Source: Malacoraja senta | Lineage: Eukaryota | Direction of reading: 5' to 3' | NCBI GenBank assembly: GCA_038087875.1 | Contig: CM075989.1 | Location: 4,836,001-4,900,000, forward strand | Length of the DNA: 64,000 bases | Shown: positions 8,859 to 54,575 of the stretch, one piece after another | How positions within the stretch are numbered: the first letter of the stretch is position 1 | Layout of the letters: every line of letters begins with the position of its first letter | Notes under the pieces: model-generated | Told to the model about the DNA's origin: nothing | The model's input: only the letters and a program-made list of their open reading frames with translations | Databases searched by the model: none | Made by a program: the position numbers and the translations under genes

Positions 8859-9698
8859 AAATAATACATATCACTTAAAAGAACTTAAAAGCAAAATACT
8901 TCAATTAGAGAAATTGTAATTTAAAGCACAGAATATCTGGAATATTTATGATAAACTATGGTACCTGCAAGGAAATTGCTGCCTTTCAAATATGTAGAGC
9001 ACAATCCCTTGATTCACATGAAGATTTAAATGCATTGCACTATGACAATATGGCACGATTGGCCATTGTAGTCATGTCCGATGCATGGCTGTATACAGTC
9101 AGTAAATCCTTAGAATCCAATATTTCAATAGTTATAATCAATAGGAATTAATAAGTTCACATCAAAGCAGTTGCATACGTCGTGTTGTGGAGTGGGTTCC
9201 TACATCACTCATAGGAGTAGTGAGCAACCCTTGGAGGAAGTAGTTTTGCACTGAAGATGGACATAAAATGCTGGAGTAACTCAGCTGGACAGGCAGCATC
9301 TCTGGAGAAAAGGAATGGATGATGTTTCAGGTCGAGACCCTTCTTCAGAACTGCAGATGCTGGTACCTTGAGGAGATTTGCACTGTTCGAGTTTGATGCC
9401 ATGTGAACTAGTTAACTGCAGAATCCAGGACAGTTTGCAGACAGCTAATAGAGGTTATGAGCCATCTTGAGTCTTTACTTATTTACCTCGGTTGTTTTAA
9501 CTATCCAATAGAGGTTCTTTGGTATTAATGGTATACATTTTCCACATTGCTAATGCTACAGCATGGAATAAACTGCAGTGAGGAAATATATCAAATTTAG
9601 AAACTGATGTATCAGTGGTGAGTGAAAAGGCATTAAATGTCTTTCCTAATACAATCATCTAAATACTTTTTTTAAACTAAACTTGTTTTTGATTGCAG

Positions 9699-9781
9699 AT
9701 GACAAATCTCCTACGCATCATATCTTTAACAAAAGACACCACATTTCTCGCAAAGTTTCTGGAGGAAGAGATTTTAAAAAC
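9699..9781 (+). CDS. TICRR: Treslin coding exon
   Basis: MTNLLRIISLTKDTTFLAKFLEEEILK, CAG acceptor, GTAAGC donor. Confidence 0.92.
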
Positions 9782-10491
9782 GTAAGCTCAAAACATTCAT
9801 AAAAGGCAGTGTTTTTATCTAGTTTCAGTTTTCTCCTTTTCATTCTCACCTTTACAGTTTGGGATCAAAGGATAATGTGCACTGTACAGAGTTTATACAT
9901 TCTCCCTCACTCACTCGGGTCTCCTCCCACAGTCAGGTTTGTAGGTTAATTGGCTTCTGTAAATTGTGCCCAGTATATAGGATAGTGATGGTGTACGGGG
10001 TGATCACTGACTCGGTGGGCCGTATCTCTAAAGTCTAAATCATGATCAGCAATGACTCCTCGTTCCTGGCAATGATATTTTATGGCCCTCCCACTCCAAA
10101 TTTAATCAACCGGTGAGTAAAACTTATTTGAAATTTTAGGCTCTGAACTTTACTATTTGGTCATTTACCAAGTGGGTTGGTAGAAATAATGAAGTTGCCT
10201 TCATTAAAAATTTAACTTTGCATTTAACAATATATTGTTAGTTTGGCCAAGATTGTAAATTAGTAAATTTTACTGATACATTAATTAAATACTTTTCCCC
10301 CATCTTGCGACATATTGTGATGTGAAAAATTAAATGTTGTTAGTAATGCAAAGTGTAAACGGGTGCTTGATGGTGGACAGTGGGCTTTCCATACTGTATG
10401 ACTCGAACATGACCTGTGAGAAGTTCCCCAACTTAAAAAAATTTAATTACCCGATATAATTTCCAAATTTGCTAATTTAATGTAACATTTA

Positions 10492-10689: not shown

Positions 10690-10887
10690 TTAGTTTATTT
10701 GTAATTTTCTCTACCGGGTCATGAGTAAGCAAAGGAAGATTGTCTGTGCTTACACTCTACCTGTTGTTGCTTGTATAGTATGACTGCAATATTTAATGTG
10801 AAATGTTAACAGTTTAATATATGGGCATCATTTTCTTGTCCTAAAGTTCTTGCTGGGTTTCAAACTCAAGTGTTTATAAAAACATTG

Positions 10888-11030
10888 AAGGTAGACAAAA
10901 GTCTGAAGAAGGGTTTCAACCCGAAACGTTGCCTATTTCCTTCGCTCCATAGATGCTGCCTCACCCGCTGAGTTTCTCCAGCACTTTTGTCTACCTTTGA
11001 TTTTCCAGCATCTGCAGTTCCTCCTTGAAC
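10888..11030 (+). repeat. Penelope pLTR-derived repeat with an intact minimal hammerhead motif (10903-10930)
   Basis: CTGAAGA-A-GGGTT-TC-AACCC-GAAAC-GTT followed by the family 3' segment, with a short inverted 5' extension. Confidence 0.72.
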
Positions 11031-11748
11031 ATTTTATAAAAACATTAATCCACTCTGCCAAATTTCAAACGTCATCCAAGAAATATTAGATGTAGTGCAG
11101 AGCAGACATTCAAGCACATTTTGATTTTTGTGTGTGTATATAGTTTTACTATTGTGTATCTATTGTTCAATTTGCTCATGATTAGAAATATTTATAATGT
11201 ATTTGAATTGTGTGGATTTAATTACCAGCTCTTTCCTGTTCCATTGCCCCTCTGCTGATTGTTCTATGTGATCCATTGTACGGTTTGGCTTTGACTTCCA
11301 GTGTAATTGTCAAGTTTTTGTCATCTGTGGCTCGATAGCTTTCCCATCTGTTTTGGCATTTGAGTACAGAATATTTGCACTGGCGACTGTGCAGTACTGT
11401 GCAAAGAGAGTGATCTATTCTTGGAGAGCCATCTTTCTAAGGATGCATTACCAAAGGTATCAACCAGTATAGAAAGGCACTAATTCAGAGCAAAATTATC
11501 CTCTGTGCCAAGATTAATATTCAACTCCCAACCAAATATCACCAACAGAGTATTGGTTATTGAAATTGCTGATTATTGGTGTTTCTGTTTGCAAATTTAC
11601 CCTCTGGTTCCTTGCATTGCAAGAATAACCAAACTTCAAAAGATCATTTGCTGTGAGGTTATTTTGCATGTCCATGTGTTGTCAAAAGTAGACTGTAAAT
11701 GTAAGCTGTTTTAAAAAATAAATTTGATTCAACCATATTGCATTTCAG

Positions 11749-13975: not shown

Positions 13976-14034
13976 GCAAGCACTTAACACGTTCTATGCG
14001 GTGGGCTATTTAGCGGGTTCTGTGGTAGCGCAGC

Positions 14035-14800: not shown

Positions 14801-14806
14801 TAACAG

Positions 14807-14885: not shown

Positions 14886-15919
14886 GTACAGTTTGGCTAT
14901 ACTTAGATTTATAACTAATACATATCCAATTTGTATTATGGCAATGCCTAATATAGCATAACTGTCTGTACTTCAATTATCATTGTCTATTGTCTATTAT
15001 CATCAACAAGACCTTGTGACCATTGCTGGCATTTCACTGGAGGATGCCAATAGTTGCCCGCAACAATGATATTTGATTCAATGCTGCTCCTTTGAAATCA
15101 TTCATGGAAAAATGATTTAGACTTTGACATTTCTTGTTGTAATTCAGCTAGACTGCTTCAGTAGTCTCAGGTTCGGTCTCTGTCCTATTTTGGGTTTGAA
15201 TCGAATGTTAATTGAAACTTCCTGCAAAGCGTATCTCCCCAGTACAACAGCAGTTACGATCAAATGCTTTAAGACTTGCAAAGTTCCACTTAATAGCATT
15301 GGTTTTATATTGTGAGTTTTCCTGTTATTATGATTTGATATTGTACATTATTAGCATGTTTAGTCAGGAAAACAGTATTGAAGAATACAGAAACTTTCAT
15401 TTGGAGATTAGTTTGATCTGAAACAATTCTCTTGAGTTCAGTTTCTGGTCTTTGTTAGGTTAGTTAATCTGGACTCATGATCCAAGTGTGTGTATATATA
15501 AAGTGTAAACCAGTAGGTACACAAAAATGCTGGAGAAACTCAGCGGGTGCAGCAGCATCTATGGAGCGAAGGAAATAGGCAACGTTTTGGGCCGAAACCC
15601 TTCTCTCCTCAAGTGTAAACCAGTTATGCTTTATGCTTCTGTTTACTACCCCTAACCCTTGCCGAACTAGTTCAGAATTGAGCGAGTGCAGCAAATTTCC
15701 AGCAGTGGTTTAATTCGTTAGTTAATATATTTCTCTAACTGGATAAATAAGCAATGTTGGTTTTTCGAAAACTGGGTGAAGGCAAAATGGTATAACCTTT
15801 TGATTTACTGCCATTTTTGTAAATGTAATTGCATGAATTTTACTGCTACAGTTTTCATATTTCCTTTCCTGGTTGCCTACCATTCATTTAATCTTTTCCA
15901 TCTGTTTATTAATCCTCAG

Positions 15920-17128: not shown

Positions 17129-18646
17129 GTAAGTCTTGGGTGGTGGGTGAAATACTTAATGAATTGTTTTCATATGCTGCCAACGTTATATTTTTGTAAT
17201 AGAAATGTCTGCCTACAGTGCATTGGGTGAGTCAGTTATGCAGCACATAAACAGGGCCCTTGGATCAACGTCCAAGCTGACCAAGATGTCTCGGTGTTTG
17301 GCACTCATGGGACTAGCTCAGAAAAACGAAACTTTTTCTATCCAAGTACCAGTCTAAATGTCTTAAACATTGTACGCACGTCAGCAGCTTTCACTGGCAG
17401 CTCATTCCACATGCTCACTAACCTCTGTGTGAAAACATTGAACTTTGGATCCCTTTCTACACTTTTTCCCTCTCACCTTAAACCTAAGCCCTCTAGTTCT
17501 TGATTCACCTACCTGGGGAAATAAGACTCTGGGCATTTTCTCTCTCTATTTCTCCACCAGCTCATTAGCCATGCATTTAACACCTGAGATTAACTATAGA
17601 GATGTCTGTTTTTAACATAATCCTAAACACCCTAAATTATTTTTACAGGCCCTGTCTCACTTCCTGCCTGTGTCATTGGTACCATTATGAGCCACCACCT
17701 CTGCCTGTTCACCCTCCCCTTTCAGAATGTTCTGAGCTGGCTCAAACATCCTTGACCTTGGAACCCTGAGTGAGTGTAGTGAAAGCTAATGACTTTCAGG
17801 AAAGAATTAGCCAGTGGGCATCCCTAATGTCTCCCTAAGACATTGGAAGCGAGGCACCATCTTGAACCTCTACAATTAACCCTAGTGGTGAAGGTGTTTC
17901 CACTGTGCTGTTTGGAGGTTTTAGAATTTAGAATAAAGATGCACTTTCTAAGTTAAGTTTGTTTTGACCTGCAAGTGAGCTTGCACATAATGATATTTTT
18001 TAATTTTGTACTTCGTATCATTAACCTTCCAAATTTGAAGAAGCTTTGGTGAATTATTACATTGGATCTTGTAGATTGAACAGATTTCAACCACGATATG
18101 CTGGTAATGTTGGTGGATAGGATGCCAGTTAAGAGGGATACTTTGTCCTGGGTAGTACAAAGCCTTGGACATTGAAGCTGCACGTAGATAACCTTTTGTT
18201 GCCTGGATTAGCTGCTTCTATGATTATATGACCAATCAACGATTGGGTACTGAGTTAAACTAGTGTCTCAAAATTACGACACAAGGAACAGCAGATGCTG
18301 GAACAAAACACAGTGCTGAACTCAGCAGCCCAGCAATGAGTGAAGACATGTCCCGACCCAAAACACCGTTTGTACTTTCCCTCCACAGGTGCTGTCTGAC
18401 CTGCTGAGTTCCTCTGGCACTTTATGTTTTTAATCTCAAAATTGAGTTTTGGTTTGGACATGTATCTGAATTGGGTGTTTAGGTACAAATAAACTGTTTT
18501 GTAGCTGATAGCAAAAAAGAAGTAGATTTAAATTCAAGGTGAAGAACTGAAACTTAAGTGGTAAATATTTGGATCATATACTTTGCCTGATATTTGTGCT
18601 TTGAAAAACAGTTCCTTTCCCTTATATCATTATTCTTTATGTGCAG

Positions 18647-19925: not shown

Positions 19926-20294
19926 GTATGGGTATAATTTAACTTGCAAATTTATTTCAAGAATTGAATTGAAAAATTAGCTGCTCTGCTGAGAAGGTCT
20001 TTTGTCCACTTTTTTTTTTTCCACCCAGGCTTTCTTGAATAGTTACTTGAACGTTAGTGCTATGTATTTGATTTGGAAAATTTGTTTTAATTTTTGTGGG
20101 AAGAGGCTGATGTAAAGTTCTAAAAACTTTAAATGCACATGCTGATAAATTGGTAATTGAAATGGGTAGATTCTCAGTACTCTGTTTTTATCTTATCTGA
20201 GATTGCATTTCAAACATTATCTGTAGAATCTTGCATTTTATGATGTAATCTCATACTGAATTTAGTTTCAATAACTTTTTGTTTAATCTCTCAG

Positions 20295-23210: not shown

Positions 23211-23289
23211 GTGAATTTCCGAATTCCCTAACTTTTCTCAAAATTATAATTGCACTAAAGAAAATACAGTTGCCGGAAATTTGATATAG

Positions 23290-24400
23290 ATTCAGTTTAG
23301 TTTATTGTCACGTGTACAATGAAAGGCTGTTTGTTGCGTGCTAACCAGTCAGCAGAAAGACAATACATGATTACAATCAATCCATTTACAGTGTATAGAT
23401 ACATAATGGGATATTGTTTATTGCAAGGTAAAGCCAGCAAAGTCCAATCTAGGATAATCCAAGGTAGATAAAAATGCTGGAGAGACTCAGCGGGTGAGGC
23501 AGCATCTATGGGGTGAAGGGAAAGGTGATGTTTCGGGTCGAGACCCTTCTTTAGAAGTCTGAAGAAGGGCCTCGACCTGAAACGTCACCTTTTCCTTCGC
23601 TCCATAGATGCTGCCTCACCCGCTGAGTTTCTCCAGCATTTTTATCTACCTTCGATTTTTCCAGCATCTGCAGTTCCTTCTTCGGGATAATCTGAGGGTC
23701 ATCAAAGAGGTAGAGTAGTTCCGCACTGCTCTCTGGTTGTGGGAGGATGATTCAGATGCCTGATTACGGCTGGGAAGAAACTCACTGAATCTGGTGGTGT
23801 GTGTTTTCACGCTTCTATACCTTTTGCCTGATGGGAGAGAGGAGAAGAGTGAGTGGCCAGGGTGCGACTCGTCCTTGGGTATGCTGCTGGCTTTGCCGAG
23901 GCAATGCGAGGTATAAAAAGTCAATAGAAGGGAGATTTGGTTTGTGTGATGGTCTGGGTTGTGTCCACAATTCACTGCAATTTCTTGCGGTCGTGGATGG
24001 AGCTGTTCCCAAACCAAACAGTGATGCATCCTGATAAAATGCTTTCTACAGTGCATCTGGAAGTTGGTGAGGGTCGTAGGGCACATGTCAAATTTCCTAT
24101 ATCTTCTAAGGAAGTAGAGGTGTTGGTGTGCTTTCTTGATCGTTGCTTCAATCTGGGTGGTCCAGGAGAAGTTGTTGGTAATATTGACTCCTAGGAATTT
24201 GAAGTTTTCAACCATCTTCGGCACAGTCAATACAAACTGGGGTGTGTGTACCGCTTCGTTTCCTGAAGTTAATCACATCTCCTTTGTGTCGTTGACATTG
24301 AAAGAAAGGTTGTTGTCTTCACACCAGGACACAAGGTTCTCAATCTCCTTCCTGTCCTCCGTCTCATCATGATTTGGTATCCGGCCCGCATTGGTGATCA
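23290..24400 (-). mobile_element. Rex1/L2-type LINE 3' fragment
   Basis: ENLVSWCEDNNLSFNV, VENFKFLGVNITNNFSW...HLYFLRR, HPGHSLFSSLPSGKRYRS, plus a GTGACAATAAACTAAAC tail. Confidence 0.82.
23461..23676. repeat. Penelope-derived fold-back repeat with two back-to-back hammerhead motifs, inserted in the Rex1/L2 fragment
   Basis: 23461-23652 is a near-perfect palindrome. GGATAATC occurs on both flanks. Confidence 0.78.
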
Positions 24401-25819
24401 TGGGGCAAAAGTGTTTCCAGCATTTTTTGCTTTTGTTATCAAATTGTATTAGGACAGCACAATGGTGGAGCTGTTTCACAACACCTGACCTCGGGTGCTG
24501 TCTATGAGGAGTTTGCATCATCTGTGACCACATGGGTTTCTTCCGGGTGTTCGGTTTCCTCCCAAAAACGTGGGGGATTGCAGCTTTAATTGGCATAGTG
24601 TGTAGGGAGTTGATGAGAAAGCGGAATAATATGGAACTAATGTGAATGGGTGAACAGTTGGTCAGAGGTGAACTCTGGGCCGAAGGGCCTGTTCGCATGT
24701 CGTATCTGTAAACTATTGGCTTCTAGTTGAAAAGGACATGGATCAAAATACTCTGACCCTGAAAAGTGTCATCATGGTGTTATGAATTCATCTTTTAGAG
24801 GTAACCATGTTATATATCCTCATAGTTGAAGAAGGAGGGATGCAACTTCAAATGGATCTTTCTTCAACTGAAAATCAGATGAAGATACCATTATAAAATG
24901 ACACTGGTACGCAAAAATCTGGCCCCTGCGACCCATTGATTTGGTAACACAATTATAATTCACTGTGCAATCCACATATGTGCTTGTTGCATCCATAAGA
25001 ATGAGGGCCTTTGCAAGAGTTCAGCTTGCTTGAAGTATTCAGTCTAAGTGAATCCATGTGCAATGCAAAATTTGGTATAACACTGCTATTAATTCCCAGG
25101 ACATTTTATTGGGGTTATCAGTCATTTGTATTTATTTGTTTTTTTTAAAGAAATGTTGCTTGTCTGCACTAATTTGTTTGCAGCCCATTTTTAAAATGTC
25201 CTGTAAGTTAGACATGCCTTGTCTAGTCTTCAGCCCATCACTTAGCCCTGCATTGGGAATTTTGGTGACTATTCATTTTCAACATGAGAAGAAAAAGAGT
25301 AGAGTGGTCTGCATTACAGGGAAAAAGAAAAATTGCTGGAAACACTCAGCAGGTTGGGCAGCATGCGATTAAAGATAATGTTTATGTTTCGGGTCTGAGA
25401 CTTTTTGTTGAACAAAAAAGAGAAACAAGTTAGTTTTCATTAGCAAAGAAGCCGATAGTTTAGAATGACAGGGGGGTGGGAACCAGAGCAGCAGGTGAGT
25501 AAATGGAAGGGTTGATGAGAAAGTGGAGGTTATGGTGAGTAAGTCTCAAAGGAAGGATGGGCAGGGAGAGGTTCATGAATATGGGATTATGAAGGGCTGA
25601 AGTGTGTTTACTTCAATGTAAGGGGTATTGTGGGTGATGGACTTAAAACCTAGATCAGTGTTTGGAATTATATTCCTCAACGTGCCTGGGATTCTATGTT
25701 TCAGATGAGGGACGGGGTGTGAAGGAGGTGGAAGAGTTCCTTTGCTATTCAGGGAATAGTGGAAAGTGGATATTCTGGTTGAAGACACCTAAGTTGGTGG
25801 AGTTGCAGACAATGAGAAA

Positions 25820-27230
25820 GGCTGTCGGGAGATACAGCGGGATATCGATAAGTTGCACAGATGGGTGGATTGAGTTTAACCTGTGTAAGTGTGAGGTGTT
25901 GCATGTTGGGTGGTTGAATGTAAGGAGAGAGTATATAATGGCAAGACCCTTAACAGCATTGATGAGCAGAGGCGATCTTGGAGTCCAAGTTCATAGCTCA
26001 TGAAAGGTGTCAGCATAAGTAGATATAGTAGTAAAGAAGGCATATTCTATGCTGGCCTTCATTGCTTGGGGAATTGACTGTAAGACGCAGGAAGCCATGA
26101 TGCAGGTCTATTGGACTGAATGAAAGCTATGCAAAAGTGGCCTAATTCTTATCATCATTACCTTTTTGCATATCTTTCATTCTGGTCGAGACCGTTCTTC
26201 AGACTGAGCGTCGGGGAAAGGGAAACGAGAGATATAGACGGTGATATAGAGAGATTTAGAACAAATGAATTAAAGATATGTAAAAATGGCCTGTGTCCTT
26301 TATCTTTTTTTTTGCATATTTTTCATTCATTTGTTCGATATCTCTATATATGTCTATATTTCTCGTTTCCCTTTCCTCAGAGTCTGATGAAGGTTCTCGA
26401 CCCAAAAACGTCACCTATACCTTTTCTCCAGAGATGCTGTCCGACCCGTTGAGTTACTCCAGCTTTTGGTGTCTATCTTCGACTGTGATAAATAGTTGGC
26501 CTGTGATTAGCACTGAGGATTTTATCTGTTCCTTTTCTGTTTGGGGACTGAGGTCGATACATTTTGCACAGGAAAGATTTAGAGGGATATGGGCTGAATG
26601 CGAGCAGATGGGACTAGTGTAGATGGGACAGATTGATTGCCATGGGCAAGTTGGGCCGAAGGACCTGTTTCTGTGCTGTATGACTCGCTGGCCGTTTATA
26701 GGTAATTAGGTGATGAAGCAGAAAATTGTAACAATTGCCAAGCTGGAAAGCTGGCAAGATATCAAGCTGGAAAGTGTACAGAGAAGATTTACAAGGATGT
26801 TGCAAGAACTAGAGGGTCTGAGCTATAGAGAGAGGTTGAGTATGCTGGGTCTCTATTCCTTGGAGCATAAGGGGTGATCTTATAGAGGTATATAATTCAT
26901 GATAAGAATAGATTGGGTAGATACATAGAGTCTCTTGCACAGAGTAGGTGAATCACGGATCAGAGAACATAGGTTTAAGGTGAAGGGGAAAAGATTTGAT
27001 CGGAATCTGAGGGGTAACATTTTCACGCAGTGTTCTGGTTGTATGGAACAAGCTGCCAGAGGAGGTAGTTGAGGCTGGGACTATACCAAATGTTAAGTAA
27101 CAATTAGACAGGTACGTGGATAGGACAGGTTTGGAGGGATATGTGCCAAACGCAGGCAGGTGAGACTAGTGTAGCTGGGACGTTGGCCAGTGTGGGTAAG
27201 TTGAGCCGAAGGGCCTGTTTCTAGACTATG
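25820..27230 (+). mobile_element. Degenerate CR1 LINE 3' region, interrupted by a Penelope-derived inverted repeat (~26125-26480)
   Basis: FN..KCEVLH.G, RGDLGVQVHSS, ERV..RFTRML, and a CR1 tail. Confidence 0.75.
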
Positions 27231-27278
27231 ACACAATACTTTATTTCTGTTACTTTATATTTTATTTGTGTTCTGCAG

Positions 27279-30082: not shown

Positions 30083-30084
30083 AG

Positions 30085-32813: not shown

Positions 32814-33169
32814 TTGGTTAGCTGCTAAAATAGGATGGCCAGGTTACAGTTTGCCAAGAAGTACTTAAAAGAGCAATCACAGTTCTGGAAAAAAGTTCTT
32901 ATGGACAGATGAGACAAAGATCACCTTATACAGAGCTGCCAAGTAGTAAGGATTTTCTGCATTTTGTACGGAAATACGATTAGAATACGGATGTACGATT
33001 TTGTGTTGTGAAATATGGATTTTAAAAATATGGAGTTCAGCTCAGTCTGAAGAAGGGTCTCGACCAGAAACGTCACCCATTCCTTCTCTCCAGAGTCGCT
33101 GCCTGTCCCGCTCCAGGTTTAAACAGAGCACTGTCAGTTTAACGCGTGGGAATTTAAATAATATAATAA

Positions 33170-35654: not shown

Positions 35655-36410
35655 ATGAATGAATAAGTATATTGGCCAAGTATTCACATATAAGGAATTT
35701 GCCTTAGTGTTCCTCCCGCAAGTGACAACATGACATACAGTGACAGTTAGGAATGATACATTAAACATTAAACATTAATAATGAAACATTATTGATTAAA
35801 CATGTGAATTAAATTAAATACCAGAGCAAAAGGAGGCTACAGATTTTTGGTTATTGAGTAGAGCTGCTCGTGGAAAAAAGCTGTTTTTATGTCTGGCTGT
35901 GGCAGCTTTGACGGTCTGGAGTCGCCTTCCAGAGGGAAGTGATTCAAAGAGTTTGTGGCCAGGGTGAGAGGGGTCAGTGATGATCTTGCCCGCTCGCTTC
36001 CTGGCCCTTGCAGTGTACAGTTCGTCAATGGAGGGAAGGTTGCAGCCCATAACCTTCTCAGCTGATCGGACGATTTGCTGCAGCCTCCGGATGTCATGCT
36101 TGGTGGCTGAGCCAAACCAGACCATGATGGAGAAGGTGAGGACAGACTCGACGATGGCCGTATAGAATTGGACCATCATTGCCTGTGGCAGATTGTGCTT
36201 CCTCAGCTGCCGCAGGAAGTACATCCTCTGTTGTGCCTTTTTGACTGTGGAGTCGATGGTGGCCCCCCCCATTTAAGGTTCTTGTAGATGATGGTTCCTA
36301 AGAACTTAAAAGACTCCACAGATGTGACCGTGGTGTTGTTGATCGTGAGTAGGGTGAGGGGAGGGGGAGCACTCCAAAAGTCTACTATCAATTCCACTGT
36401 CTTAAAAGCA
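35655..36410 (-). mobile_element. Rex1/L2-type LINE 3' fragment
   Basis: VESFKFLGT..., KKAQQRMYFLRQLRK, DPSHPGHKLFESLPSGRR. Confidence 0.85.
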
Positions 36411-39377: not shown

Positions 39378-40499
39378 GACCTTGATGAAGGTGCATTAAA
39401 GACAAATAACCTTGCGTTTCAAGTGTTCATCCACCAACAATATGTTTCCAATGTGTTGTTTTCATTTTCACTAAGTTCTTCCAACTATGAAATAATAAAG
39501 AGACTTACAAGTCCAAGTTTGTTACTAAAATCGCAGATATGTAACAGAGAATAACTTGATGCCTGTCCTCTCACAAAAAAATCTTATTTACACAGAAAAT
39601 TATAGCACAGGGACATGTAGGCACAAGGAACTGCAGATACTGGAATCTTATGTAGAACACAATGCTGGAGTAACTCAGTGGGTCAGGCAGCACTTTTGGA
39701 GGGAAAAGGGTAGGACAGGGCAAAGGTCAATTCAGTTTAGTTTATTGAACTAAGGTACAATGAAAAGCTTTTGTTGTGTGCATCCGAGGTCAATATTGAA
39801 CCCAGGTCTCTGATGCTGTGAAGGAGCGGCTCTACCAGCTGTGCCGCCTATGTTCCTCTGATGTGCCCCTGACGTTTTAAGCTTGTCATGTATCAGAAGT
39901 TATACTAAACTATATACACGTGCACTTGAGTTTTTATTATTATTGAGGATTTGGATAAGTTTTCCTCATTTGAACTATCTGACGTCCAGAACCTTTTTTA
40001 TGTTCTCTTAAAATGTTCAGGTTGTTTTCTTCATTCCTTCTTCAAAGGGTTGATTATTGTAGCAAAATTGGTATTGGTTTGTCACTTCACCTAGGATGTT
40101 CTTCATAAAATATTCCCATATATTGTGGGTAAGTAATTTGATCTTTGTGATGAGGTGTGGGTAGGGATGAATTAGTTGGGCAGACAGTTGTCTATATTCA
40201 AAATTCTGATAGGAACATATGTTTGCTTAAGGTTGTGCTGGATTGTGCCCCCGGAGCAAAGACACAGAGTTAGAGCATTGTGCATAGCACTTAAGCTGGA
40301 AAGAGTGCAGAGAAGATCTACGAGGATGTTGCCAGGATTTAAGGGCCTGCGTTATAGGGAGAGGTTGGGCAGGCTAGGACTTTTTTCCTTGGAACACAGG
40401 AGGATAGGGGGGTGATCTTGTAGAGGTGTATAAGATCACGGGAAAAGGTAGGGTAAATGCAGTCTTTTACCCAGAGTAGGGGAATCAAGAACCAAAGGA

Positions 40500-40940
40500 A
40501 GACACAAAATGCTGGAGTAACTGAGTGGGACAGGCAGCATCTCTGGAGAGAAGGAATGGGTGACGTTTTGGGTTGAGACCCTTCAGACTGATGTCAGGGG
40601 AGTGGGCGGGACGGAGAATGTAGTCGGAGAACTGGGAAGGGGGAGGGGATGGAGAGGGAGAAAAGCAAGAAGTTAGACAAGTCGATGTTCATACCGTTGG
40701 GGTGTAAGCTACCCATGCAAAATATGAGGTGCTGTTACTCCAATTTGCACTGGGCCTCACTCTGACAATGGAGGAAGCCCAGGACAGAAAGGTCAGATTG
40801 GTAATGGGAGGGGGAGTTGAAGTGCTGAGCCACCGGGAGATCAGGTAGGTTAAGGCAGACTGAGTGGTTCAGCGAAACGATCGCCAAGCCTGCACTTGGT
40901 ACTGAGCGGAGGTGTTCAGTGAAACGATTGCCGAGCCGAA
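40500..40940 (-). mobile_element. Penelope-like element fragment (GIY-YIG C-terminus plus pLTR), inserted in a CR1 fragment (~40290-41220)
   Basis: RLGNRFTEHLRSV...LPVAQHFNSPSH..SDLSVLG.LHCQSEAQ.KLE, followed by the hammerhead-bearing repeat. Confidence 0.82.
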
Positions 40941-41689
40941 CCAAGGGAGATGGGTTTGACGTGAGAGGGGAAAGGTTTACCAGGAGCCCGAGTGATAGCT
41001 TTTTTTACACAGGGTGGTGGGTATATGGAACGAGCTGCCAGAGGAGGTAGTTATGGCAGGTACTATAACAACATTTAAAAGGCATTTGGTAAGGTACATG
41101 GATAGGAAAGGTTTAGAGGGATATAGGCCAAATGTGAGCAGGTGGATCTAGTGTAGATGGACATCTTGGTCACATGGGCAAGTTGGGTCGAAGAGCCAAT
41201 TTCTATGCTGTATGACGCTCTGTATAGATGTCATTGGAAAAGACCAGGTTATATTTCACGGGTAGCTTACACCCCAGTGGTATGAATATTGATTTCCTTA
41301 CCTCCAAGTAACCCCGCCATTCCCTCTCTATCCCTCACCCACCCAGTTGTTTTCACCCAACAAATAGCTGTTTAAGAAGTAAGCCATTTAGAACGGAGAC
41401 GAGGAAACACTTTTTCTCACAGAGAGTGGTGGAGGCAGGTTCTCTGGATGCTTTCAAGAGAGAGCTAGATAGGGCTCTTAAAAATGGCGGAGTCAGGGGA
41501 TATGGGGAGAAGGCAGGAACGGGGTACAGATTAGGGATGATCAGCCATAATCACATTGAATGGCGGTGCTGGCTCGAAGGGCCGAATGGCCTACTCCTGC
41601 ACCTATTGTCTATTGTCTGCCATTGGCCTGTTTCCTTTGTCATTGCACCTTTTTTGCATTTTTTAAATTAATTATTCTTTATCTCTACA

Positions 41690-43094
41690 TCTCTATATTA
41701 CTAAAAGTCTGATCTTGACCACATCCCGTTCGGTATATTGATTTTAGAAAAAACGCTGCCACTTCGGCTGTGATTTTTGGCCATCTTACTCCGAGTCCTC
41801 CTCCGCTGCGCAGGACAAGAGGATTTTTCCCATCGATTAAAAATAAAAGAGTTATTAGTGTTTAAAACATGTTGAGATTCTCTCTCCTGAAGGCCACGCC
41901 CCTTCCGGAGGGACTATAAAACCCGGAAGTGTTGAGTGCCTCAGTCAGTCTGCAAGATGGGGGAGCGAGAGGGTCACGTCTCTCAGTCTGAGCTGTGAAT
42001 AACACTGAACACATGTCTACTAAACTTTGAGTTGTTTTACTGACCTGTCAGTGCCCTTAATGTGGTTTGAAAATATAGTTTGGAAATGCTAAAGCTGTGT
42101 TGCCTTTGGTTTGGAAATGCTAAAGCTGCGTTGCCTTTGGTTTGGAAATGCTAAAGCTGTGTTGCCTTTGATTTGGAAATGCTAAAGCTGTGTTGCCTTT
42201 GGTTTGGAAATGCTAAAGCTGTGTTGCCTTTGGTTTGGAAATGCTAAAGCTGTGTTGCCTTTGGTTTGGAAATGCTAAAGTTGCCTTGCCTAATTAAAGT
42301 TGCCTTGCATAATTAAAGTTGCCTTGCTTAAAGTTGCCTTGCCTAATTAAAGTTGCCTTGCCTAATTAAAGTTGCCTTGCCTTCTATATAATTAAAAGTC
42401 TAATCTTGACCACTTCCTGTTTGTGCTTTATATTGATTTTAGAAAAAAACGCTACCATCTTACTTGGAGTCCCCCTCTGCTCATCGGCTGCCGAGGATTT
42501 TTCCCATCGATGAAAAATAAAAGAGTTATTAGTGTTTAAAAAATGTTGAGATTCTCTCTTGTCAATCATGCCATGAAGGCCACGCCACTTCTGATGGGAG
42601 GGGGAGGGACTATAAAACCCAGAAGTGTGGCCGTGGCTCAGTATCTGCAAGATGGAGGAGGGAGAGGTCATGACTCGCTGTCTTTAGTGGCCTTGCACCC
42701 TGCTTGAAATGGTATGAAACTGCACTTGAATTTGGTGGCCTTGCACCCTGCTTGAAGTGGTAAGAAACTGCACTTGAATTCGATGGCCTTGCACCCTGCT
42801 TGAAATGGAATTTCAAGGAATAGCCGTGAGTGAACTGCCAGCCCATCAGCCATGAGTGAGATGCCAGCACAACAGGCTTGAGTGACTGAGCCGACAGCCC
42901 AAAAATCCATTCGGCCCACAATGTCCATACTAGCCCTCTGGAAACCAATCCCTTCAGCCCACAACACCCATACCAGCGCTCCAGAAAGCCCCCACTGGCC
43001 ACCAATATTGGAATTGTTGGTGAGGTGGAATATTGCGTTGGGGGACCAGCCCTCACCTGTGATGCTGGGACCCAACGGGTCCCACTTAGTCTAG
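41690..43094 (+). mobile_element. Complete non-autonomous Helitron (1405 bp)
   Basis: A|TC 5' end, CTAG|T 3' end, perfect hairpin TGGGACCC-AAC-GGGTCCCA at 43066-43084, no TSD, splits a Penelope-derived repeat. Confidence 0.87.
42078..42382 (+). repeat. Minisatellites inside the Helitron: 31-bp unit x ~6.5, then 19-bp unit x ~5.5
   Basis: GGTTTGGAAATGCTAAAGCTGTGTTGCCTTT and AATTAAAGTTGCCTTGCCT in head-to-tail arrays. A 48-bp unit x ~2.5 also lies at ~42687-42808. Confidence 0.9.
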
Positions 43095-44238
43095 TCATCA
43101 TCTATATTTCTCGTTTACCTTATCCCTAACCAGTCTCCCCGAAACGTCACCCATTCCTTCTCTCCAGAGATGTTACCTGCCGCTGAGTTACTCCAGCTTT
43201 AATGTCTTTTAATTGCACTCATGGGTTGGTAGCACTGAGTTTGTTTTTTATGGCTTGGAGAGCAAAATTTGAGAAGTTTGAGTTCTAAAATGAATTGATA
43301 CAGTTTATGATGTGTAAGAAAAGCAAAAGCATTTCCAAGAGTTGAGATGAGATTTGAGAGACGAAGTTAGGGGGTTGGGGTGGTTCTCTTTTAAACTTGG
43401 CCCTATTGATTTATGAAAGTGGCAACATATGCAGCAAATGAGAGTGAAGCAGGCGAGCTGGAAGGAAAGCAAACAATCGGACTGCTCTTGGCTTGGGGGG
43501 TGAGGGCAGAGGTCTGTAGGAGAAAGGCACATTTGTGAAAGCGTGCTCTGCTGTGCTGTCCTGATGAAAAATCCATTTTCTTAATGTTGTCCTTTCTCTG
43601 GATATCCTCCAGAGGGCACACCTTGTTCAGTTTTAACAGCAATTGGACCTTGAGTGATTCAGTCGTATTTAATTCAGCCTTTGATGGGTTATATTTCTGG
43701 GAAATATAGACTTATCTTTCAAGGCATCTTGAAGGAATAAAGTCCTCAATTCATCTTAAACACTTGACTGTTTATCATTTCTCATTTTGTGTTTTTTATT
43801 TTAGCGATAAGTTTCATAGAGTGGTAAACAACTAGCCTTTAGTCCTCCAGGCAATTGGGTCACCAGTTAGAACTGGTTAACAGAAATCGATTGTCTTAGA
43901 ATTAGTAGAATAGTCTCTGGGTTATGCTGAGGCAAGGTATGTTTTAGCCCAGCATGTAGTACCTGGAGTATGGACCAAGTAAAAGAGTTTCACACAAAGT
44001 GCTGGAGTAACTCAGCGGGTCAGGCAGCATCTCTGGAGAAATGGAATAGGTGACATTTTGGGTTGAGACCCTTCAGACTGAAGAAGACTAAAAGGGCTTT
44101 GCAAGTTTGGGCCAAGTTTTTAGATATATATTTAAATATTTAAAAGAATTAAGACGAGCAGGAAGCCAGAAGCTGATGGAAACTTAAAGACAAAAGCTGA
44201 GGCAATGAAAGACTAAATGATAACCAGAATCAATCAAG

Positions 44239-45439: not shown

Positions 45440-46885
45440 AACATAGAAACATAGAAACATAGAAAATAGGTGCAGGAGTAGGCCATTCGGCCCTTCGAGC
45501 CTGCACCGCCATTCAATATGATCATGGCTGATCATCCAACTCAGTATCCCGTACCTGCCTTCTCTCCATACCCCCTGATCCCTTTAGCCACAAGGGCCAC
45601 ATCTAACTCCCTCTTAAATATAGCCAATGAACTGGCCTCAACTACCTTCTGTGGCAGAGAGATCCAGAAATTCACCACTCTCTGTGTGAAAAAAGTTGTT
45701 CTCATCTCGGTCCTAAAGGATTTCCCCTCTATCCTTAAGCTGTGACCCCTTGTCCTGGACTTCCCCAACATCGGGAACAATCTTCCTGCATCGAACCTGT
45801 CCAACCCCTTAAGAATTTTGTATGTTTCTGTAAGATCCCCCCTCAATCTCCTAAATTCTAGCAAGTACAAGCCGAGTCTATCCAGTCTTTCTTCATATGA
45901 AAGTCCTGACATCCCAGGAATCAGTCTGGTGAACCTTCTCTGCACTCCCTCTATGGCAATAATGTCCTTCCTCAGATTTGGAGACCAAAACTGTACGCAA
46001 TACTCCAGGTGTGGTCTCACCAAGACCCTGTACAACTGCAGTAGTAAAACCTCCCTGCTCCTATACTCAAATCCTTTTGCTATGAATGCTAACATACCAG
46101 TCGCTTTCTTCACTGCCTGCTGCACCTGCATGCCTACTTTCAATGACTGGTGTACCATATCACCCAGGTCTCGTTGCATCTCCCCTTTTCCTAATCGGCC
46201 ACCATTTAGATAATAGTCTGCTTTCCTGTTTTTGCCACCAAAGTGGATAACCTCACATTTATCCACATTATACTGCATCTGCCATGCATTTGCCCACTCA
46301 CCCAGCCTATCCAAGTCACCTTGCAGCCTCCTAGCATCCTCCTCACAGCTAACACTGCCCCCCAGCTTAGTGTCATCCACAAACTTGGAGATGTTGCATT
46401 CAATTCCCGCATCCAAATCATAATATATATTGTAAATAGCTGGGGTCCCAGCACTGAGCCTTGCGGTACCCCACTAGTCACTGCCTGTCATTCTGAAAAG
46501 GACCCGTTTACTCCTACTCTTTGCTTCCTGTTTGCCAGCCAGTTCTCTATCCACATCAATACTGAACCCCCAATACCGTGTGCTTTAAGTTTGTATACTA
46601 TTCTCTTATGTGGGACCTTGTCGAAAGCCTTCTGAAAGTCCAGATATAACACATCCACTGGTTCTCCCCAATCCACTCTACTAGTTACATCCTTGAAAAA
46701 TTCTATAAGATTCGTCAGACATGATTTACCTTTCATAAATCCATGCTGACTTTGTCCAATGATTTCACCACTTTCCAAATGTGCTGCTATCCCATCTTTA
46801 ATAACTGATTCTAGCAGTTTCCCCACTACCGACGTTAGACTAACTGGTCTGTAATTCCCCGTTTTCTCTCTCCCTCCCTTTTTAA
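45440..46885 (-). mobile_element. CR1 (HER1-like) LINE, young 5'-truncated copy
   Basis: GNYRPVSLTS, YLDFQKAFDKVPH, SGVPQGSVLGP, FVDDTKLG, HLEYCVQFWSP, (TTCTATGT)n tail, few frameshifts. Confidence 0.93.
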
Positions 46886-48274
46886 GGCATGTGGCATTGG
46901 TGAATGACTGAAGTCCTGGAATGAATGGCAAGCTGATAGAAGTTGGCATTAATCAAAAGTCACAACTAGAGAGTGATCCTAAGCTACTATTTATCTCTTT
47001 GGAAAAGCTTGGACTATCTTTAATCAGCGTTTACTGGACGATACCGACGATACCTTGCATTAAACGTGAATCCCCTTATCTTGTATCTGTACACTGTGGA
47101 CAGCTCGATTGTACCATGGATAATCTTTCCGCTGATTAGTTAGTACCCAGCAAAAGCTTTTCACTGTTCCTCGATACACATGACAATAAATTAAACTAAT
47201 AGAGCCATTAAATGGAATTGGTCTAGAAAATCCGAGGTTTGATGACCTGCATCCCAAGGCTACAGTATGTAAGAGATGAAGGACAATGGGTGCAGAGATT
47301 GGAATAGATCATACAGTAGGACATGAAACAGTACAGCACATCATGTTTGTGCTGTCTGCATTTGATCCATATCCGTCTATTCCCTCCACTTCCATGTGCC
47401 TCTCCAAAAGCATCTTAAACGCCACTGTCGCATCAGTCTCTACCTCCAGCCCTGGCAGCAGATTCCAGGCCCCCACCACCCTCTGTGTAATAAACTTGCA
47501 CTGCACGACTCCTTTGTGGAATCTTAATTTGAGAACAGTTCTGGTTGGAAGGTAGCAAATGTAACTGCACTGTTCAAGAAAGGCAGGAGAAAGTAAAATG
47601 ACAATGACAGATTAGTTAGCCTTTCATCAGTGGTGGGGAAATTGCAAAAATCTAATAAGAAACTAGCAGAAGATCATTAGTAAAACATGACAGCAAAATT
47701 GTTCATTGCAACATTTGAGACACTGTTGGTAGATGAGCAGATTTTACGGATTATTGGATGGTATTTTTATTAATACTGCAACATGTGTGTAATTCATTTT
47801 TCTAGATGGTCTTCTCCTTATCGAGTCCACATGCAAGATTAGAAGTTCAGCCAGAGTTGAACACACTTCTCGGCATCTGCATACAATGGTGTCTGTTTTG
47901 CCGCTTCTTGTGCTTCTTATGCGTGGTGGTGGAAAGATTGGTGGAGACAGGGCCGCCCGCGATCGACGTGAACACTCTTTCCTTGATGGTTTAAATGGCA
48001 ATTTCCAGTGAACCTACAAGGTTTAAAGGGAGCACAGGGAACAAGGACCTGGAAGGTTTTAAATGAACATGGGGAAACAAAACCAGGTTAGATTTAAGGG
48101 AATGCGACTGACTGAGTAAGTTTAAAGGTGAGTTTAACCTGGAATCTCATTCAGTTAATGGAGTGCATAAGTGAACACTTGATGAGTCAGTCACTGAGCC
48201 GTTGGTATCTCCAGATGGTCAGGTTATGGTTTATCAGAGTTTTACTGCAATAGGTTTGGATGGAATAAATATGG

Positions 48275-49860: not shown

Positions 49861-52800
49861 TCTCTCATTTCTAAAGTCTAAACGGTCACAAGGTGGAGTG
49901 GGCTCCTCTTATCTCACTTCCTGATTTTCACTTACGTTAGCTAATTTGTTGATGTCCTTAAATTAATTCAGTGTTGCAGGAAGGGAACATTTCAGCAAAG
50001 GTTTAATATGATTATTTAGTTACTGGTGCTTAAAGATACTTCTTCTTCTTGCGTATGGTGTGCACAGCCTAAAGTTGTAAGACAACTTGTTCTGTTTGAT
50101 CTTCTGTTTATGCCCGCCAGGTCGATTGCATTCATCAAAACAGGGTGGACCACGTGAAGGTTGCAATCTCCCACCCCCTTAAGGATACATAGAAAATAGG
50201 TGCAGGAGGAGGCCATTCGGCCCTTCATGCCAGCACCACCTACAAGTCTCAGGCTTTCTGTTCCCAATTAAACAATCCTGTGAATGTCTCATCTTATGCA
50301 TGATTGGGGTAAAATTCTACTTTGATGTTATCATTGTGCGCCTTTAAACTTAAGGAAAAGTTTGAAAGATGTAGAGAAAACCCGCTGGGGTAATCTGTAC
50401 CAGAGACTTCAAAATAAAGGTGGTGATAAATAAAATCTACACACACAGGAGACTGCAGATGCTGGAATCTTCAGCAAAATCCGATTTCTGCAGGAATTCA
50501 GCAGGTCAGGCAGCATCTATAGAGGGTAGACACAAATTGCTGGTTTCAGTCTGAAAAAGGGTCTCAACCCGAAATGTCACCCATTCCTTCTCTCCAGAGA
50601 TGCTGCCTGTCCTGCTGGGTTACTCCAGCATTTTGACTCTATCTTCGGTGTAGTTCTTTCCTACACACGGCATCTATGGAGGGAATGGACTGAGAACATT
50701 TTGGATTGGGGGCCCTACTTCAGGCTTACACCCCTTGGTACATAGTGAGTGAGTGTTGTACTGTTAGAGGTGCTGCCCTTCGAATACAACGCTGATCACA
50801 TCTACTCCCTCAGGTGAAGTGGAAAATCCCATCGCACGGTGCAAAGAAGAGCAGGGTTGTTATTCCCTGGTGTCCTGATCAGTAGTTATCCCTTGCCCAA
50901 GTTTAAAGAAGCAGATCACCCAGGATGTAGAGAGGAAAAGCGGGATGAAGACCATATAACAGGTAGAGCCTATCTCCAGAGATGCTGCCTGTCCCGCTGA
51001 GTTACTCCAGCTTTTTGTGTCCATGTACGGTTTATACCAGCATCTGCAGTTCCTTCCTACACATTTCTTCCACTCCACTGTGAAACCTCCTCAAGGTATG
51101 TCTACTTTGAAGAAGTTCCCTTCCTCTCTCCAACGAGAGTTCTGTCTCCAGAGATGCTGCCTGTCCCGCTGAGTTACTCCAGATTCTTGTGACTATAATA
51201 GGTAGAGCATATTGCAGGTGGAATGACATACTGTTGGATGGAAAATCAAACCGTGCCCTGGAGTGATGAGGAGCCAGTTTGTTTTCCAACTGGGGGATAA
51301 GCAGTTAGCATACGGGAATGGATATTATTCCAGGCAGAAACCGTTCTCCATCGTGGACTATGACTATGTTTGTTTAAGCGTGTGGTATTTTTTTCCTTTT
51401 ATGACCAGGCGGGGATTTCCTGCTGAGCCCATCCTACCTGTCCCTCAACCACCCACTCCCTGCTTCCCACCGACAGGGTTCACTGGGAACTGTAATTGGG
51501 AACAGCAAGCCCAAGGGACACTGAGACCGATTGTTCTATTTTCCACTTGTCACTTTGGCTGAGACTGATTAACTTCCCACATATTGGAAGTTTGTCCTGA
51601 TACCTTCTTGTTCCGTCTGACTGTATACAGCTGACTATCTCCATGTCAGTGATAGGCATGGCAGCATGGAATCAGTAGCCGCTGCATACATGAAGCCTAC
51701 AGTCCTTCAGCAGAAGGTAGTGAATCTGTTTGGAGTCATAGTTCTGAACAAGGGTCTTGACCCAAAATATCACCCATTCCTTCTCTCCAGAGATGTTGCC
51801 TGTCGTGCTGAGTTACTCCAGCTTTTTGTGTTTATATAGAGTTATCTTTTAGTTTAGTTTATTGTCACGTGAAAACATTTTGTTGCGTGCTATCCAGTCA
51901 GCAGAAAGATAATATATGATTACAATCGAGCCATTTACAGTGTATTGATACATGATAAGGGAATAACGTTTAGTGCAAGGTAAAGCCAGCATAGTCCAAT
52001 CAAGGATAGTCCGAGGGTCACCAATGAGGTTGATAGTAGTTCAGCACTGCTCTCTAGTTGTGGTAGGATGATTCAGTTGCCTGATAACAGCTGGGACGAA
52101 ACTGTCCCTGAATCTGGAGGTGTGCGTTTTCACACTTCTGTACCTTTTGCCTGATGGGAGAGGGGAGAAGAGGGTGGCCACGGTCATACAGCACGGAAAC
52201 AGGCCCTTCAGCCCAATTTGTCCATGCTGACCAAAATGCCCTATTTACACTTGTCCCACCAGCCTGTGTCTGCCCCCCTATCCCTCGAAACCTTTCCTAT
52301 TTACCTACCTGTCTAAGTGTCTTTTACATGTTGTAACATTACCTGCATCAACAGCCTCCTCTGGCAGCTTGTTCCATACACCCATCCCCCTCTGAGAGAA
52401 AAAGGTGCTCCTCAGCTTCATATTAAATCTAGCCCCTCTCACCTTAAACCCATGTCCTCTGGCTTATGATTCTCCTGCTCTGGGTCAAAGCATTCACCTT
52501 ATCTATTTCCTCATTATTTTATACACCTCTGTAAGATCACCACTCGGCCTCCTGTGCTCCAAGGAATAATGCCCTAGCCTGCCCAACCTGTCCCTGTTGC
52601 TCAGCCCAGTTTGAACAACATTTTTCTGTAAAAGGCTGGCTCATTACAGTGGCAGTGTTACCCGCTTTCTATGGAAATTCACAACTAAAGTTGTCTACAT
52701 AAGTGGATGCCTGCCGTCCCCATCAGATTCATGAGAGCAGTCAGGCAGATTTCAGTAGCCGGAGGAAACCCCCCACATGGTCACAGGGAGAACGTTCAAA

Positions 52801-53679
52801 CTCCACATGAACAGAACCCAAGGTCAATATCAAGCCAAGGTCTCTGGCGCTGTGAGGCATGTTGCATGTTATCCAGTAGGCAGAAAGACCATTACAACAG
52901 GTGTCAGAGTTTATGGGGAGAAGGCAGGAGAATGGGGCTAGGAGGGAGATAGATCAGGCCATGATTGAATGGCGAGGTAGACTTGATGGGCCGAATGGCC
53001 TAATTCTACTCCTAAAACATGACCTTAAGACCTCTACCAGCTGTGCCACTGTGCCACCCTTGCACAACGCGCAATGTTCAGGAAACCTCTGTGAATAATT
53101 ACATTTATAAATGTTATATTAGGTTGGTCAAATGTTTATTGTACAGGGGGAATGAAACACTGGCCATTTGGGATAGCCAAGTGAACTATAATTGTATTTA
53201 CAGTTCAGATTATTGTCACATGTACCAAGGTACAGTGAAAAGCTTTTGTTGCATGCTATACCAGTCAGCAGAAAGACAATACATGATTACAATCGAGCCA
53301 TTTACAGTGCATAGATGCATGATAAGGGAATACTGTTTAGTGCAAGGTAAAGCCAGCATAGTCCGATCAAGGATAGTCCGAGCGTCACCAATGAGGTAGA
53401 TAGTTCAGCATTGCTATCTGGTTGTGGTAGGATGATTTTAGTTGCCTGATAACAGCTGGGAAGGAACTGTTCCCGAATCTGGAGGTGTGCGTTTTCACAC
53501 TTCAGCATTAATTGGATCAGGCTTTCATCTCACAACTGGCTTTTCACTGGCACGATGTTGAACAGGCGTCAATCTAATCCAATCCATTTCCTGTAGGTTG
53601 GTAATAATCAAGATTCACACCAAGTACTTTGGATAAAGTTATCCCATTCTGGGAAGCTCCATGCAGAAAGAAGACGTCA

Positions 53680-54575
53680 ATCCATTCAGTCCACCTTGGC
53701 CTACGCGATCTCCCAGTTGCCAAACACTTTAACTCCTCCTTCCCATTCCCACACTGACCTTTCTGTCCTGGGCCTCCTCCACTGTCAGAGTGAGGCCACA
53801 CGCAAATTGGAGGAACAAAACCACATATTCCGCATGGGCAGCTTACACCCCAGCGGCACAAATATTGATTTCCCTAATTTTCAATAACTCTTGCATCCCC
53901 TCCCCTCCCCCCCCTCCCCCCTCCCCCACTCTAGCATCCTACCAGCTCCACTTGTCGCATCCCTCTTGTCATCACACCTTCCCCAGCCAACAATGGACCA
54001 TTGTGGGCTCTACCCTTCCTGAGGTCATCTGTTGCAAGGCCTTATTTATCTGGCTTCTTCTTGCCTCCAGTTCACTCCCACCTTCAACCCTCCCCCACAC
54101 CCCCACCCCTCCACTCACCACCTCTACTTTTAGACTGAAGAAGGGTTTCGACCCAGAACGTCACCTATTCTTTTTCGTTTATGTCACCTATTCCTTTCCG
54201 GGAGAGGACCCGGCGGTGGGCGGTGAACGATGAGCCCACGTGAGTCCCGGCAATCGGTCGAGGATGTGCCGCTGAGAACAAAGAGGGGCCCGGCGTGGGG
54301 GGGCACCAAGAATAAAGAGGGGCCCGGCATGCGGAGGGGGACGGGGAGGGCCGAGAAGGATGAGGGACCATTGGGATTATAATTAATACTTTTGGAACTT
54401 TGTCAGCGCTCTTTAAGTGGCGACTCTTTGCATACTTTGTGGATTGTAAGCGGAACAAAGCATTTCACTGTACTTAAAAGTACATGTGACAATAAAGCAT
54501 AATTGAATCGTTGAATTCAATCCTCAGAGATGCTGCCTGACCCGCTGACTTACTCCAGCAGTTTGTGCCTATGTC
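53680..54575 (+). mobile_element. Penelope-like element 3' fragment (GIY-YIG C-terminus plus pLTR), interrupted by a GC-rich insert (~54200-54520)
   Basis: SHSHTDLSVLGLLHCQSEATRKLEEQNHIFRMGSLHPSG.NIDF, with a degenerate hammerhead at 54135-54162. Confidence 0.82.

Follow-up and report, generated by a model that had tools for sequence, protein, structure and literature searches.

The 64,000-nt stretch of Malacoraja senta DNA analyzed here (GenBank assembly GCA_038087875.1, contig CM075989.1, positions 4,836,001 to 4,900,000 of the forward strand; hereafter the window, whose own numbering is used throughout) carries many short dispersed repeats with a hammerhead ribozyme motif. These repeats are probably dead-on-arrival insertions that stem from several subfamilies of a Penelope-like element (PLE), an endonuclease-bearing one of the Neptune/Nematis type in cartilaginous fish whose terminal repeat would hold a minimal type I hammerhead; the element would be copied much as the lizard element PAc is, and its insertions would then have decayed neutrally. 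Both the motif and the origin of such copies from truncated PLEs have already been described in kind, and the family is a further member; a search by title and abstract opening returned no published description of it in cartilaginous fish, and supplements may list shark or skate motifs.

The repeat family and its hammerhead

All 13 coordinates given in a preliminary description of the window carry a copy of the repeat, on the strand reported there. The motif quoted with them is a consensus that none of the 13 copies matches letter for letter; the unit, put at ~150 nt, measures ~90-135 nt and comes in two length classes; and stem II, read as 5 bp with a 2-nt loop, folds in the majority sequence as 4 bp with a 4-nt loop. 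A degenerate core pattern allowing ≤3 mismatches matched the window 9 times against a mean expectation of 0.02 (maximum 1 in 100 shuffles), and a profile built from 14 window copies recovered 28 fragments from the window (E≤0.05) and none from its reversed sequence. About 15 of these pieces were absent from the earlier list, the majority of them without a hammerhead. Of the 28 profile fragments, 24 were aligned and 16 of these span the hammerhead columns; copy 26183(-) ends after the GAA of the core and copy 54135(+) ~15 nt past the cut site. Several subfamilies contribute to the family, and most copies are noncoding, as first reported, with endonuclease remnants adjoining 2 of the 28 fragments. 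An Rfam scan of the window gave 10 matches at E≤1, none to a hammerhead family and none to a structured-RNA family on the unit; because minimal motifs may score below the models, this null was not counted against the hammerhead. Metagenome contigs searched with the exact family pattern yielded 0 matches.

The proposed minimal type I hammerhead of Penelope type was borne out: the majority sequence has the core CUGANGA ... GAAA ... UH in type I order, running from the 2-base 5' strand of stem I through CUGAAGA, an extra A, stem II, GAAA, CG and UC to the 3' strand of stem I. The extra base after A9 is present, the G10.1-C11.1 pair that closes helix II is G-C in 10/16 copies, and the palindromic positions 15.2-16.2, with no helix III loop, read CG in 8/16, the others being CpG-decayed, deleted or lost at the copy end. 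Stem I of the family comprises 2 bp (U-A, G-C) followed by a mismatch. The type I order, the extra base after A9, G10.1-C11.1, the palindromic 15.2-16.2 without loop 3 and the short helix I are shared with the minimal hammerheads of PLEs (PMC4209133; this source, 10.1101/2021.04.23.441226, PMC3846280, PMC7229834, PMC6765202 and 10.64898/2026.07.22.740005 are cited throughout for their accessible parts). Such motifs were reported in fish Xena, Poseidon and Neptune elements, and, as in the window, they include opposite-strand pairs and solo motifs, thousands of which were ascribed to truncated PLEs (PMC4209133). Helix I is likewise 2 bp in D. virilis, whereas helix II has 4 bp in the window family and 6-8 bp in Schistosoma and Drosophila (PMC4209133).

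Covariation of stem I was assessed in metagenome contigs scanned with a pattern that omitted this stem. At least 121 loci gave 128 matches, 115 of them distinct and 111 with enough flank, which fell into 27 groups by downstream sequence; ~6-8 singletons among the groups look by eye like strays of larger ones, so that independent families number nearer 20. Among the matches listed, 2.1:1.1 forms a Watson-Crick pair in 27/27 groups (A-U 17, U-A 10; shuffle mean 14.4, reached 0/10000), 2.2:1.2 in 25/27 with four pair types (mean 10.1, 0/10000), 2.3:1.3 in 17/27 (mean 8.3, 3/10000) and 2.4:1.4 in 8/27 (mean 7.4, 4669/10000), while slid-partner controls left 2-8 groups paired. Since these unconstrained positions covary, the motif class holds a stem I of 2-3 bp under selection, and the window family fits this class. 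In helix II, three pairs were fixed by the search pattern, and the free pair 10.4:11.4 was Watson-Crick in 9/27 groups (shuffle mean 6.0, reached 579/10000). A tblastn match to PLE proteins was found for 24 of the at least 121 loci. One metagenome contig (L001:1060-3609) holds a near full-length PLE with reverse transcriptase (RT) and endonuclease; a hammerhead follows the endonuclease after 139 nt, and an inverted copy immediately precedes the open reading frame (ORF). Loci L003-L121 comprise several unrelated animal repeat families with one hammerhead frame; their stem I covaries freely, their 3' ends fall into two classes, and inverted or tail-to-core junctions lie near the upstream edge of the core (for example L039 and L083).

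The parent element

GIY-YIG remnants adjoin the repeat at 40669-40938(-) and 53680-53884(+), as the preliminary description had it, and their position upstream of the terminal repeat at two copies supports the Penelope origin proposed there. The former, with its stop read as X, shares 62% identity across 90 aa with the GIY-YIG region of skate protein P0003, and 53741-53884(+) within the latter matches the same protein at E 1.9e-10. Used whole as a query, P0003 returned RTs of long interspersed elements (LINEs), its N-terminal half being from another element, and only residues 137-236 served as the later query. This region matches 6 longer proteins, three of them from sharks; a Pfam scan of 5 of the longer proteins found GIY-YIG in 5/5 and RVT_1 in 4/5, several below the Pfam cut-off, and the shark proteins that join RT to GIY-YIG match both window remnants. 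Four of the 5 related proteins have a CX4CxxC linker, a region that the window remnants stop short of; a Cys linker (CX2-5CxxC) between RT and endonuclease marks the Neptune and Nematis clades (10.1101/2021.04.23.441226). From these protein comparisons we infer that the parent was probably an endonuclease-bearing PLE of cartilaginous fish, of either the Neptune or the Nematis type.

A Pfam scan of the two window remnants themselves gave no match. The C-terminus of zebra shark protein P0125, considered as a read-through translation of the hammerhead, reached E = 0.084 and was not counted. At the window end, 63882-63992(-), lies a short RT remnant of the parent's PLE type (57% to residues 7-43 of P0124), unlinked to a hammerhead copy.

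Insertion anatomy and a proposed mechanism of copying

The copies show the insertion anatomy of PLEs. The 3' ends of 22 fragments fall at +57..+75 from the cut site in 13 and at +89..+104 in 6, with none at +76..+88; the remaining 3 end earlier through deletion, interruption or age. The two ends thus lie ~35 nt apart, and the stretch between them is the tail. Among the matches listed, the largest metagenome family (37 members) has 3' ends at 46-58 in 12 and 101-113 in 13, and the second-largest (23 members) at 46-57 in 9 and 84-90 in 9. Target duplications of 14-19 bp flank 5/19 units (p ~0.003-0.005 against 1500 random positions), with one further unit scoring p 0.02 and three p 0.05. Copies 10903 and 50551 have a short inverted 3'-end piece ahead of the core, copy 9348 has a tail piece in the same orientation, and the head-to-head pairs 23461-23682 and 58586-58945 carry the tail on one arm only. 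A tail, an inverted 5' copy, a partial tandem, 5' truncation and target duplication are all described features of PLE insertions, and 5'-truncated Neptune/Nematis units further resemble the window family in their 30-40 bp tail on one end, C-terminal GIY-YIG and Cys linker (10.1101/2021.04.23.441226; PMC3846280). The duplications are longer than the 8-10 bp of rotifer PLE (same sources), the density in the window is very high, and a pile-up of 5' ends at the upstream edge of the hammerhead is absent from the accessible parts of those descriptions.

The sequence of the repeats, their anatomy, the GIY-YIG link and the decay described below are direct observations, and the mechanism would carry over from PAc of Anolis carolinensis. 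In PAc, reverse transcription has two internal starting points; both lie downstream of the hammerhead, and the sequence from one to the other is the tail. The main template is uncleaved RNA, and the ribozyme cuts only with the element protein (PMC11167929). PAc and the window family are alike in having two 3' ends downstream of the hammerhead with the tail between, a spanned cut site and AT-rich targets. Because the window copies span the cut site, they would have been made from uncleaved RNA; in this they agree with the PAc model, which we infer by analogy may apply to the window family. The element protein would nick AT-rich DNA, and reverse transcription would start within the uncleaved RNA, either ~60-70 or ~95-105 nt past the cut site, and copy backwards through the hammerhead of the terminal repeat (a 2-bp stem I, a 4-bp stem II and an ACGU palindrome replacing stem III), mostly halting ~5 nt beyond the core. 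At the halt, frequent re-priming or a template jump would generate an inverted arm, a tail piece or a tandem, and a minority of events would continue into the untranslated region (UTR) and endonuclease gene. Once inserted, copies would decay neutrally, CpG first, which would strike G12 and the palindrome.

Several points weigh against this account. The mechanism is borrowed from an element of a different clade (Poseidon), for which alone activity has been demonstrated. The ORF of that element begins within its hammerhead; in the window copies, the hammerhead is not followed by an open frame. The clade assignment relies on proteins of other sharks, and the covariation class was drawn from other animals, some of its 27 groups being strays. 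No target duplication was found at 10/19 units, and the limits of the units were drawn manually, in some cases once a duplication had been spotted by eye. A downstream stem-loop folded no better than shuffles in 4/4 stretches (z -1.0 to +0.4). Finally, the clustering of 5' ends is sharper than would be expected from random truncation.

The sharp 5' boundary

This boundary is the part of the analysis that deserves further attention. By script, 11/22 fragment starts lie within -5 to +7 of C3, two of which (26384, 40585) really extend upstream, leaving 9. Five copies (26384, 40585, 26202, 43138 and 54135) extend past the boundary, so that 9/14 copies reaching C3 stop there; nine other fragments begin +3 to +24 after the cut. 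None of the 22 fragments starts at cut +1, and none of the 24 of 2739 loose-end rows considered lies at the cut site. We aligned contigs of four public runs (X1, X3, X11 and X14, from four organisms; 100,039-207,679 contigs per run) to 40440-41010. The largest loose-end class fell at 40584 in 4/4 runs (2068-4307 contigs), at TTCAGACTGA, beyond which the consensus is lost (agreement 0.41-0.45), which would place the start of most copies ~5 nt upstream of C3. Joints of a 3' end to the hammerhead edge occurred in at least 15-31 contigs per run. Summed contig depth over the hammerhead-downstream part was 7.3-11.4x that of the best endonuclease bin in 4/4 runs, a ratio that is not a copy number and in which the reference UTR matches others poorly. 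Among the matches listed for three metagenome families, starts lay ≤20 nt from C3 in 12/34, 5/21 and 12/15, the others spreading to 400 nt.

A template end, or a hard stop followed by a jump, fits the boundary because the sequence ahead of it is often re-primed. The boundary is likewise compatible with a start site at -5, with a structural stop at the near-palindrome that surrounds C3 and with a separate short master, and the clustering near -5 suggests that the RNA has a fixed 5' end or that a short unit propagates itself. We also considered a splice acceptor, given that 5-6 copies have a pyrimidine tract and AG before the core and that in D. virilis an intron ends at the corresponding place before the hammerhead (PMC4209133); this candidate was rejected, as the AG is kept in the copies and lacking in the metagenome families. 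As a tentative refinement, which we hold to be possible though rather less than even in its chances, the template RNA may begin ~5 nt upstream of the core, so that reverse transcription from the internal sites would run off its 5' end and produce a fixed hammerhead-headed module of 90-135 nt in very many copies; the module, or head-to-tail arrays of it, may re-enter the cycle alone.

The preliminary description suggested instead that the copies may be a SINE-like (short interspersed element-like) non-autonomous family mobilized by Penelope. In its fuller form, this would be a separate SINE- or retrozyme-like family, a hammerhead-headed unit of 90-135 nt with a fixed 5' end, transcribed from its own start or by read-through, possibly in head-to-tail arrays, and recopied by PLE protein. 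The 5' end is indeed sharper than plain truncation predicts, with loose ends at 40584 in every run; the 3'-end-to-hammerhead-edge joints and a tail-to-core junction at 9349 attest to head-to-tail units; and pseudo-long terminal repeats (pLTRs) alone suffice for mobilization in trans (PMC3846280) and are the source of tandem retrozymes (10.64898/2026.07.22.740005). Against this, short and endonuclease-bearing copies are alike in sequence type, 3' ends and duplication pattern, the identical boundary recurs in several subfamilies, and the metagenome 5' ends spread as far as 400 nt among the matches listed. The tandem joints amount to at least a few dozen among the contigs of each run, and the window holds no array; nor was a promoter noticed, though no search aimed at one was made. 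As for the fixed ends of a SINE, the 5' ends cluster near -5 with about half of the fragments starting away from it, and there are two 3' ends. A separate family is possible but unnecessary, and we consider it unlikely.

Animal retrozymes that lack long terminal repeats are noncoding, have a type I hammerhead, are derived from or moved by PLEs and occur in a chondrichthyan, all as in the window family; but they form tandem arrays, mostly with a canonical hammerhead per unit, and circular RNA, whereas copies in the window occur singly and dispersed or as inverted pairs, their cores minimal and mostly broken (PMC7229834; 10.64898/2026.07.22.740005). No tandem array with a complete hammerhead in ≥2 consecutive units was found within the window, and by this tandem criterion the family is not a retrozyme.

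Decay of the copies and ribozyme activity

The view of the copies as dead PLE insertions bears on a further proposal of the preliminary description, a very large genomic ribozyme load. The 11 core positions are intact in 4/16 hammerhead-spanning copies, and in 3 of these a stem II pair or the palindrome is broken; 10903(+), with cut triplet GUU, is the sole one of the 16 to keep core, stem II and palindrome, and the window has no same-strand tandem pair of intact motifs. Over the 13 listed copies, agreement with the majority was 93.5% at non-CpG core sites, 92.3% at other non-CpG sites of the hammerhead and 90.3% at downstream non-CpG sites. A core no more conserved than its flanks, which had been named beforehand as an outcome that would count against a ribozyme, is thus what the copies show (93.5% versus 90.3%); this parity argues against selection on the copies, not against the hammerhead of the master element. 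Among CpG sites of the same copies, G12 was kept in 7/13 and the others in 76-82%. By contig depth in the four runs, G12 was kept in 64-70%, the G of a downstream non-core CpG in 69-77% and a non-CpG G in 95-97%; at each of these three sites the reference departs from the majority. The core shows no visible selection once inserted, and the catalytic G12 decays like other CpGs.

That the copies nonetheless form a working load, cutting host transcripts or circularizing RNA, appears very improbable, even with four intact cores, one wholly intact copy and a very abundant family. The core is broken in 12/16 copies, and the decay of G12 matches the CpG rate. The copies stand alone or in inverted pairs, an arrangement that leaves no dimer partner and would bury the motif in a long hairpin, and the predicted dimer fold (10903 and the majority sequence) lies 2.6-8.4 kcal/mol above the two-strand minimum. 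Single minimal motifs showed no cleavage and dimers cut weakly (PMC4209133), dimer cleavage is treated in a review (PMC6765202), and of 9 frog dimers 1 cut and 8 did not (10.64898/2026.07.22.740005). To judge from their sequences, the "ribozyme load" would mostly be relic and nearly all genomic copies inert; by analogy, weak cutting by the master hammerhead, either in dimeric form or aided by the element protein, is probable. Least credible of all is a chance resemblance of a palindrome-rich repeat end to a hammerhead, for although Rfam returned no hammerhead match, the 41-nt stretches fold no better than shuffles and stem I has only 2 bp, stem I covaries across groups, a PLE endonuclease lies upstream both here and in L001, and hammerheads are published in PLE terminal repeats (PMC4209133; PMC11167929).

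Individual copies

A complete insertion unit, 10873..11046(+), is bounded by a 14-bp target duplication (10873-10886, 11033-11046) and consists of a short inverted 3'-end arm (10886-10902), the hammerhead (10903-10930) and a downstream part with tail. A second unit with a 14-bp duplication, 50513..50683(+), has a short inverted arm at 50530-50543 and a hammerhead at 50551-50578 that lost G8; it is nested within an older minus-strand copy (~50448-50730). The short copy 15501..15624(-) begins within the core, lacks a tail and has a 14-bp target duplication (15501-15514, 15611-15624). A partial tandem at 50955..51212(+), with a 19-bp target duplication, is made up of two pieces without hammerhead, 50973-51062 with tail and 51145-51196 without. 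In the short copy 9250..9366(-), the hammerhead (9321-9348) has an intact core and a broken palindrome, and immediately 5' of the core stands a tail piece of like orientation (9349-9366); its target duplication is weak (score 9, p ~0.02). Of the other short copies, 33042..33126(+) has an intact core, a broken first stem II pair and an internal deletion downstream, 43990..44082(-) has a 3-nt core deletion, has lost G12 and has a 14-bp candidate duplication with 2 mismatches, and 51743..51831(+) has lost G8 and G12.

Three inverted pairs involve both strands. In 23452..23692, the head-to-head joint is the upstream edge of the hammerhead; the minus arm (23461-23554) lacks the tail, the plus arm (23555-23682) has it, and the candidate duplication is 8 bp. 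The pair 26146..26480 has ~85-nt arms of upstream (pLTR/3' UTR) sequence, an incomplete minus hammerhead (26180-26202) and a plus hammerhead (26384-26412) that lost G12. The pair 58574..58961, without hammerhead, has a 16-bp target duplication, a minus arm (58586-58667) with tail and a plus arm (58663-58707 and 58923-58945) without. Its plus arm is interrupted by a later 215-bp insertion (58708-58922) with terminal inverted repeats and a TTA/TAA target, similar to miniature elements of PIF/Harbinger type.

Both endonuclease-bearing copies retain UTR sequence. The 5'-truncated PLE insertion 40489..40948(-) comprises the GIY-YIG C-terminal remnant (40669-40938, with one in-frame stop and a small duplication), a pyrimidine-rich UTR, a broken hammerhead (40562-40586) and the short 3' end, and has an 11-bp candidate duplication. 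The PLE remnant 53680..54176(+) comprises a GIY-YIG C-terminal part (53680-53884), ~250 nt of pyrimidine-rich UTR, a hammerhead (54135-54162) with G12 and A13 changed, and an incomplete downstream part. Absent from the earlier list was the copy 43095..43207(+), which has an upstream piece as in the 26384 type and a core without its 5' half. An old diverged copy spanning the hammerhead, its core broken, lies at 18340..18429(+), and a fragment with tail but no hammerhead at 39622..39705(-). The profile search further gave two older fragments at 2629-2728(+) and 3116-3206(+), the latter with tail, an old diverged fragment at 25328..25401(-), and two more at 54522-54576(+) and 56447-56500(+).

Other features of the window

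A large host exon at 20244-23284(+) has an 824-aa open frame and an overlapping 276-aa frame; the atlas clusters closest to it bear the name TICRR (score 0.85), which is no more than a lead, and the overlap of the two long frames suggests a frameshift near 20810-21074 that may be an assembly error. At 27277-32574 lies a near-identical tandem duplication (period ~2806 bp) that is either recent or an assembly artefact. Tc1-type transposase remnants (Pfam HTH_Tnp_Tc3_2) lie at 4713-6005(+), with copies near 28418-29000, 31224-31806 and 34889-35150. A 31-bp and a 19-bp tandem array adjoin each other at 42048-42400. LINE RT remnants, two of them confirmed by Pfam RVT_1, and a second abundant short repeat family occupy 7778-8589(+), 45541-46952(-), 23646-24722(-) and 35814-36272(-).

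Implications

A large load of active ribozymes is not demonstrated by this family. What the family does is to extend the 2014 finding of minimal hammerheads to a very abundant family of cartilaginous fish and to lend genomic support, from another PLE clade, to the 2024 in vitro result that copying starts at two sites within uncleaved RNA. The abundance of copies turns the positions of their 5' and 3' ends into a statistical read-out of the transposition mechanism. Should the template RNA begin ~5 nt upstream of the core, genomic copies alone would have sufficed to map the start site of a vertebrate PLE; the pLTR, the inverted arm and the tail would then be template jumps at the end of the RNA, and the step from PLE to retrozyme would be marked.

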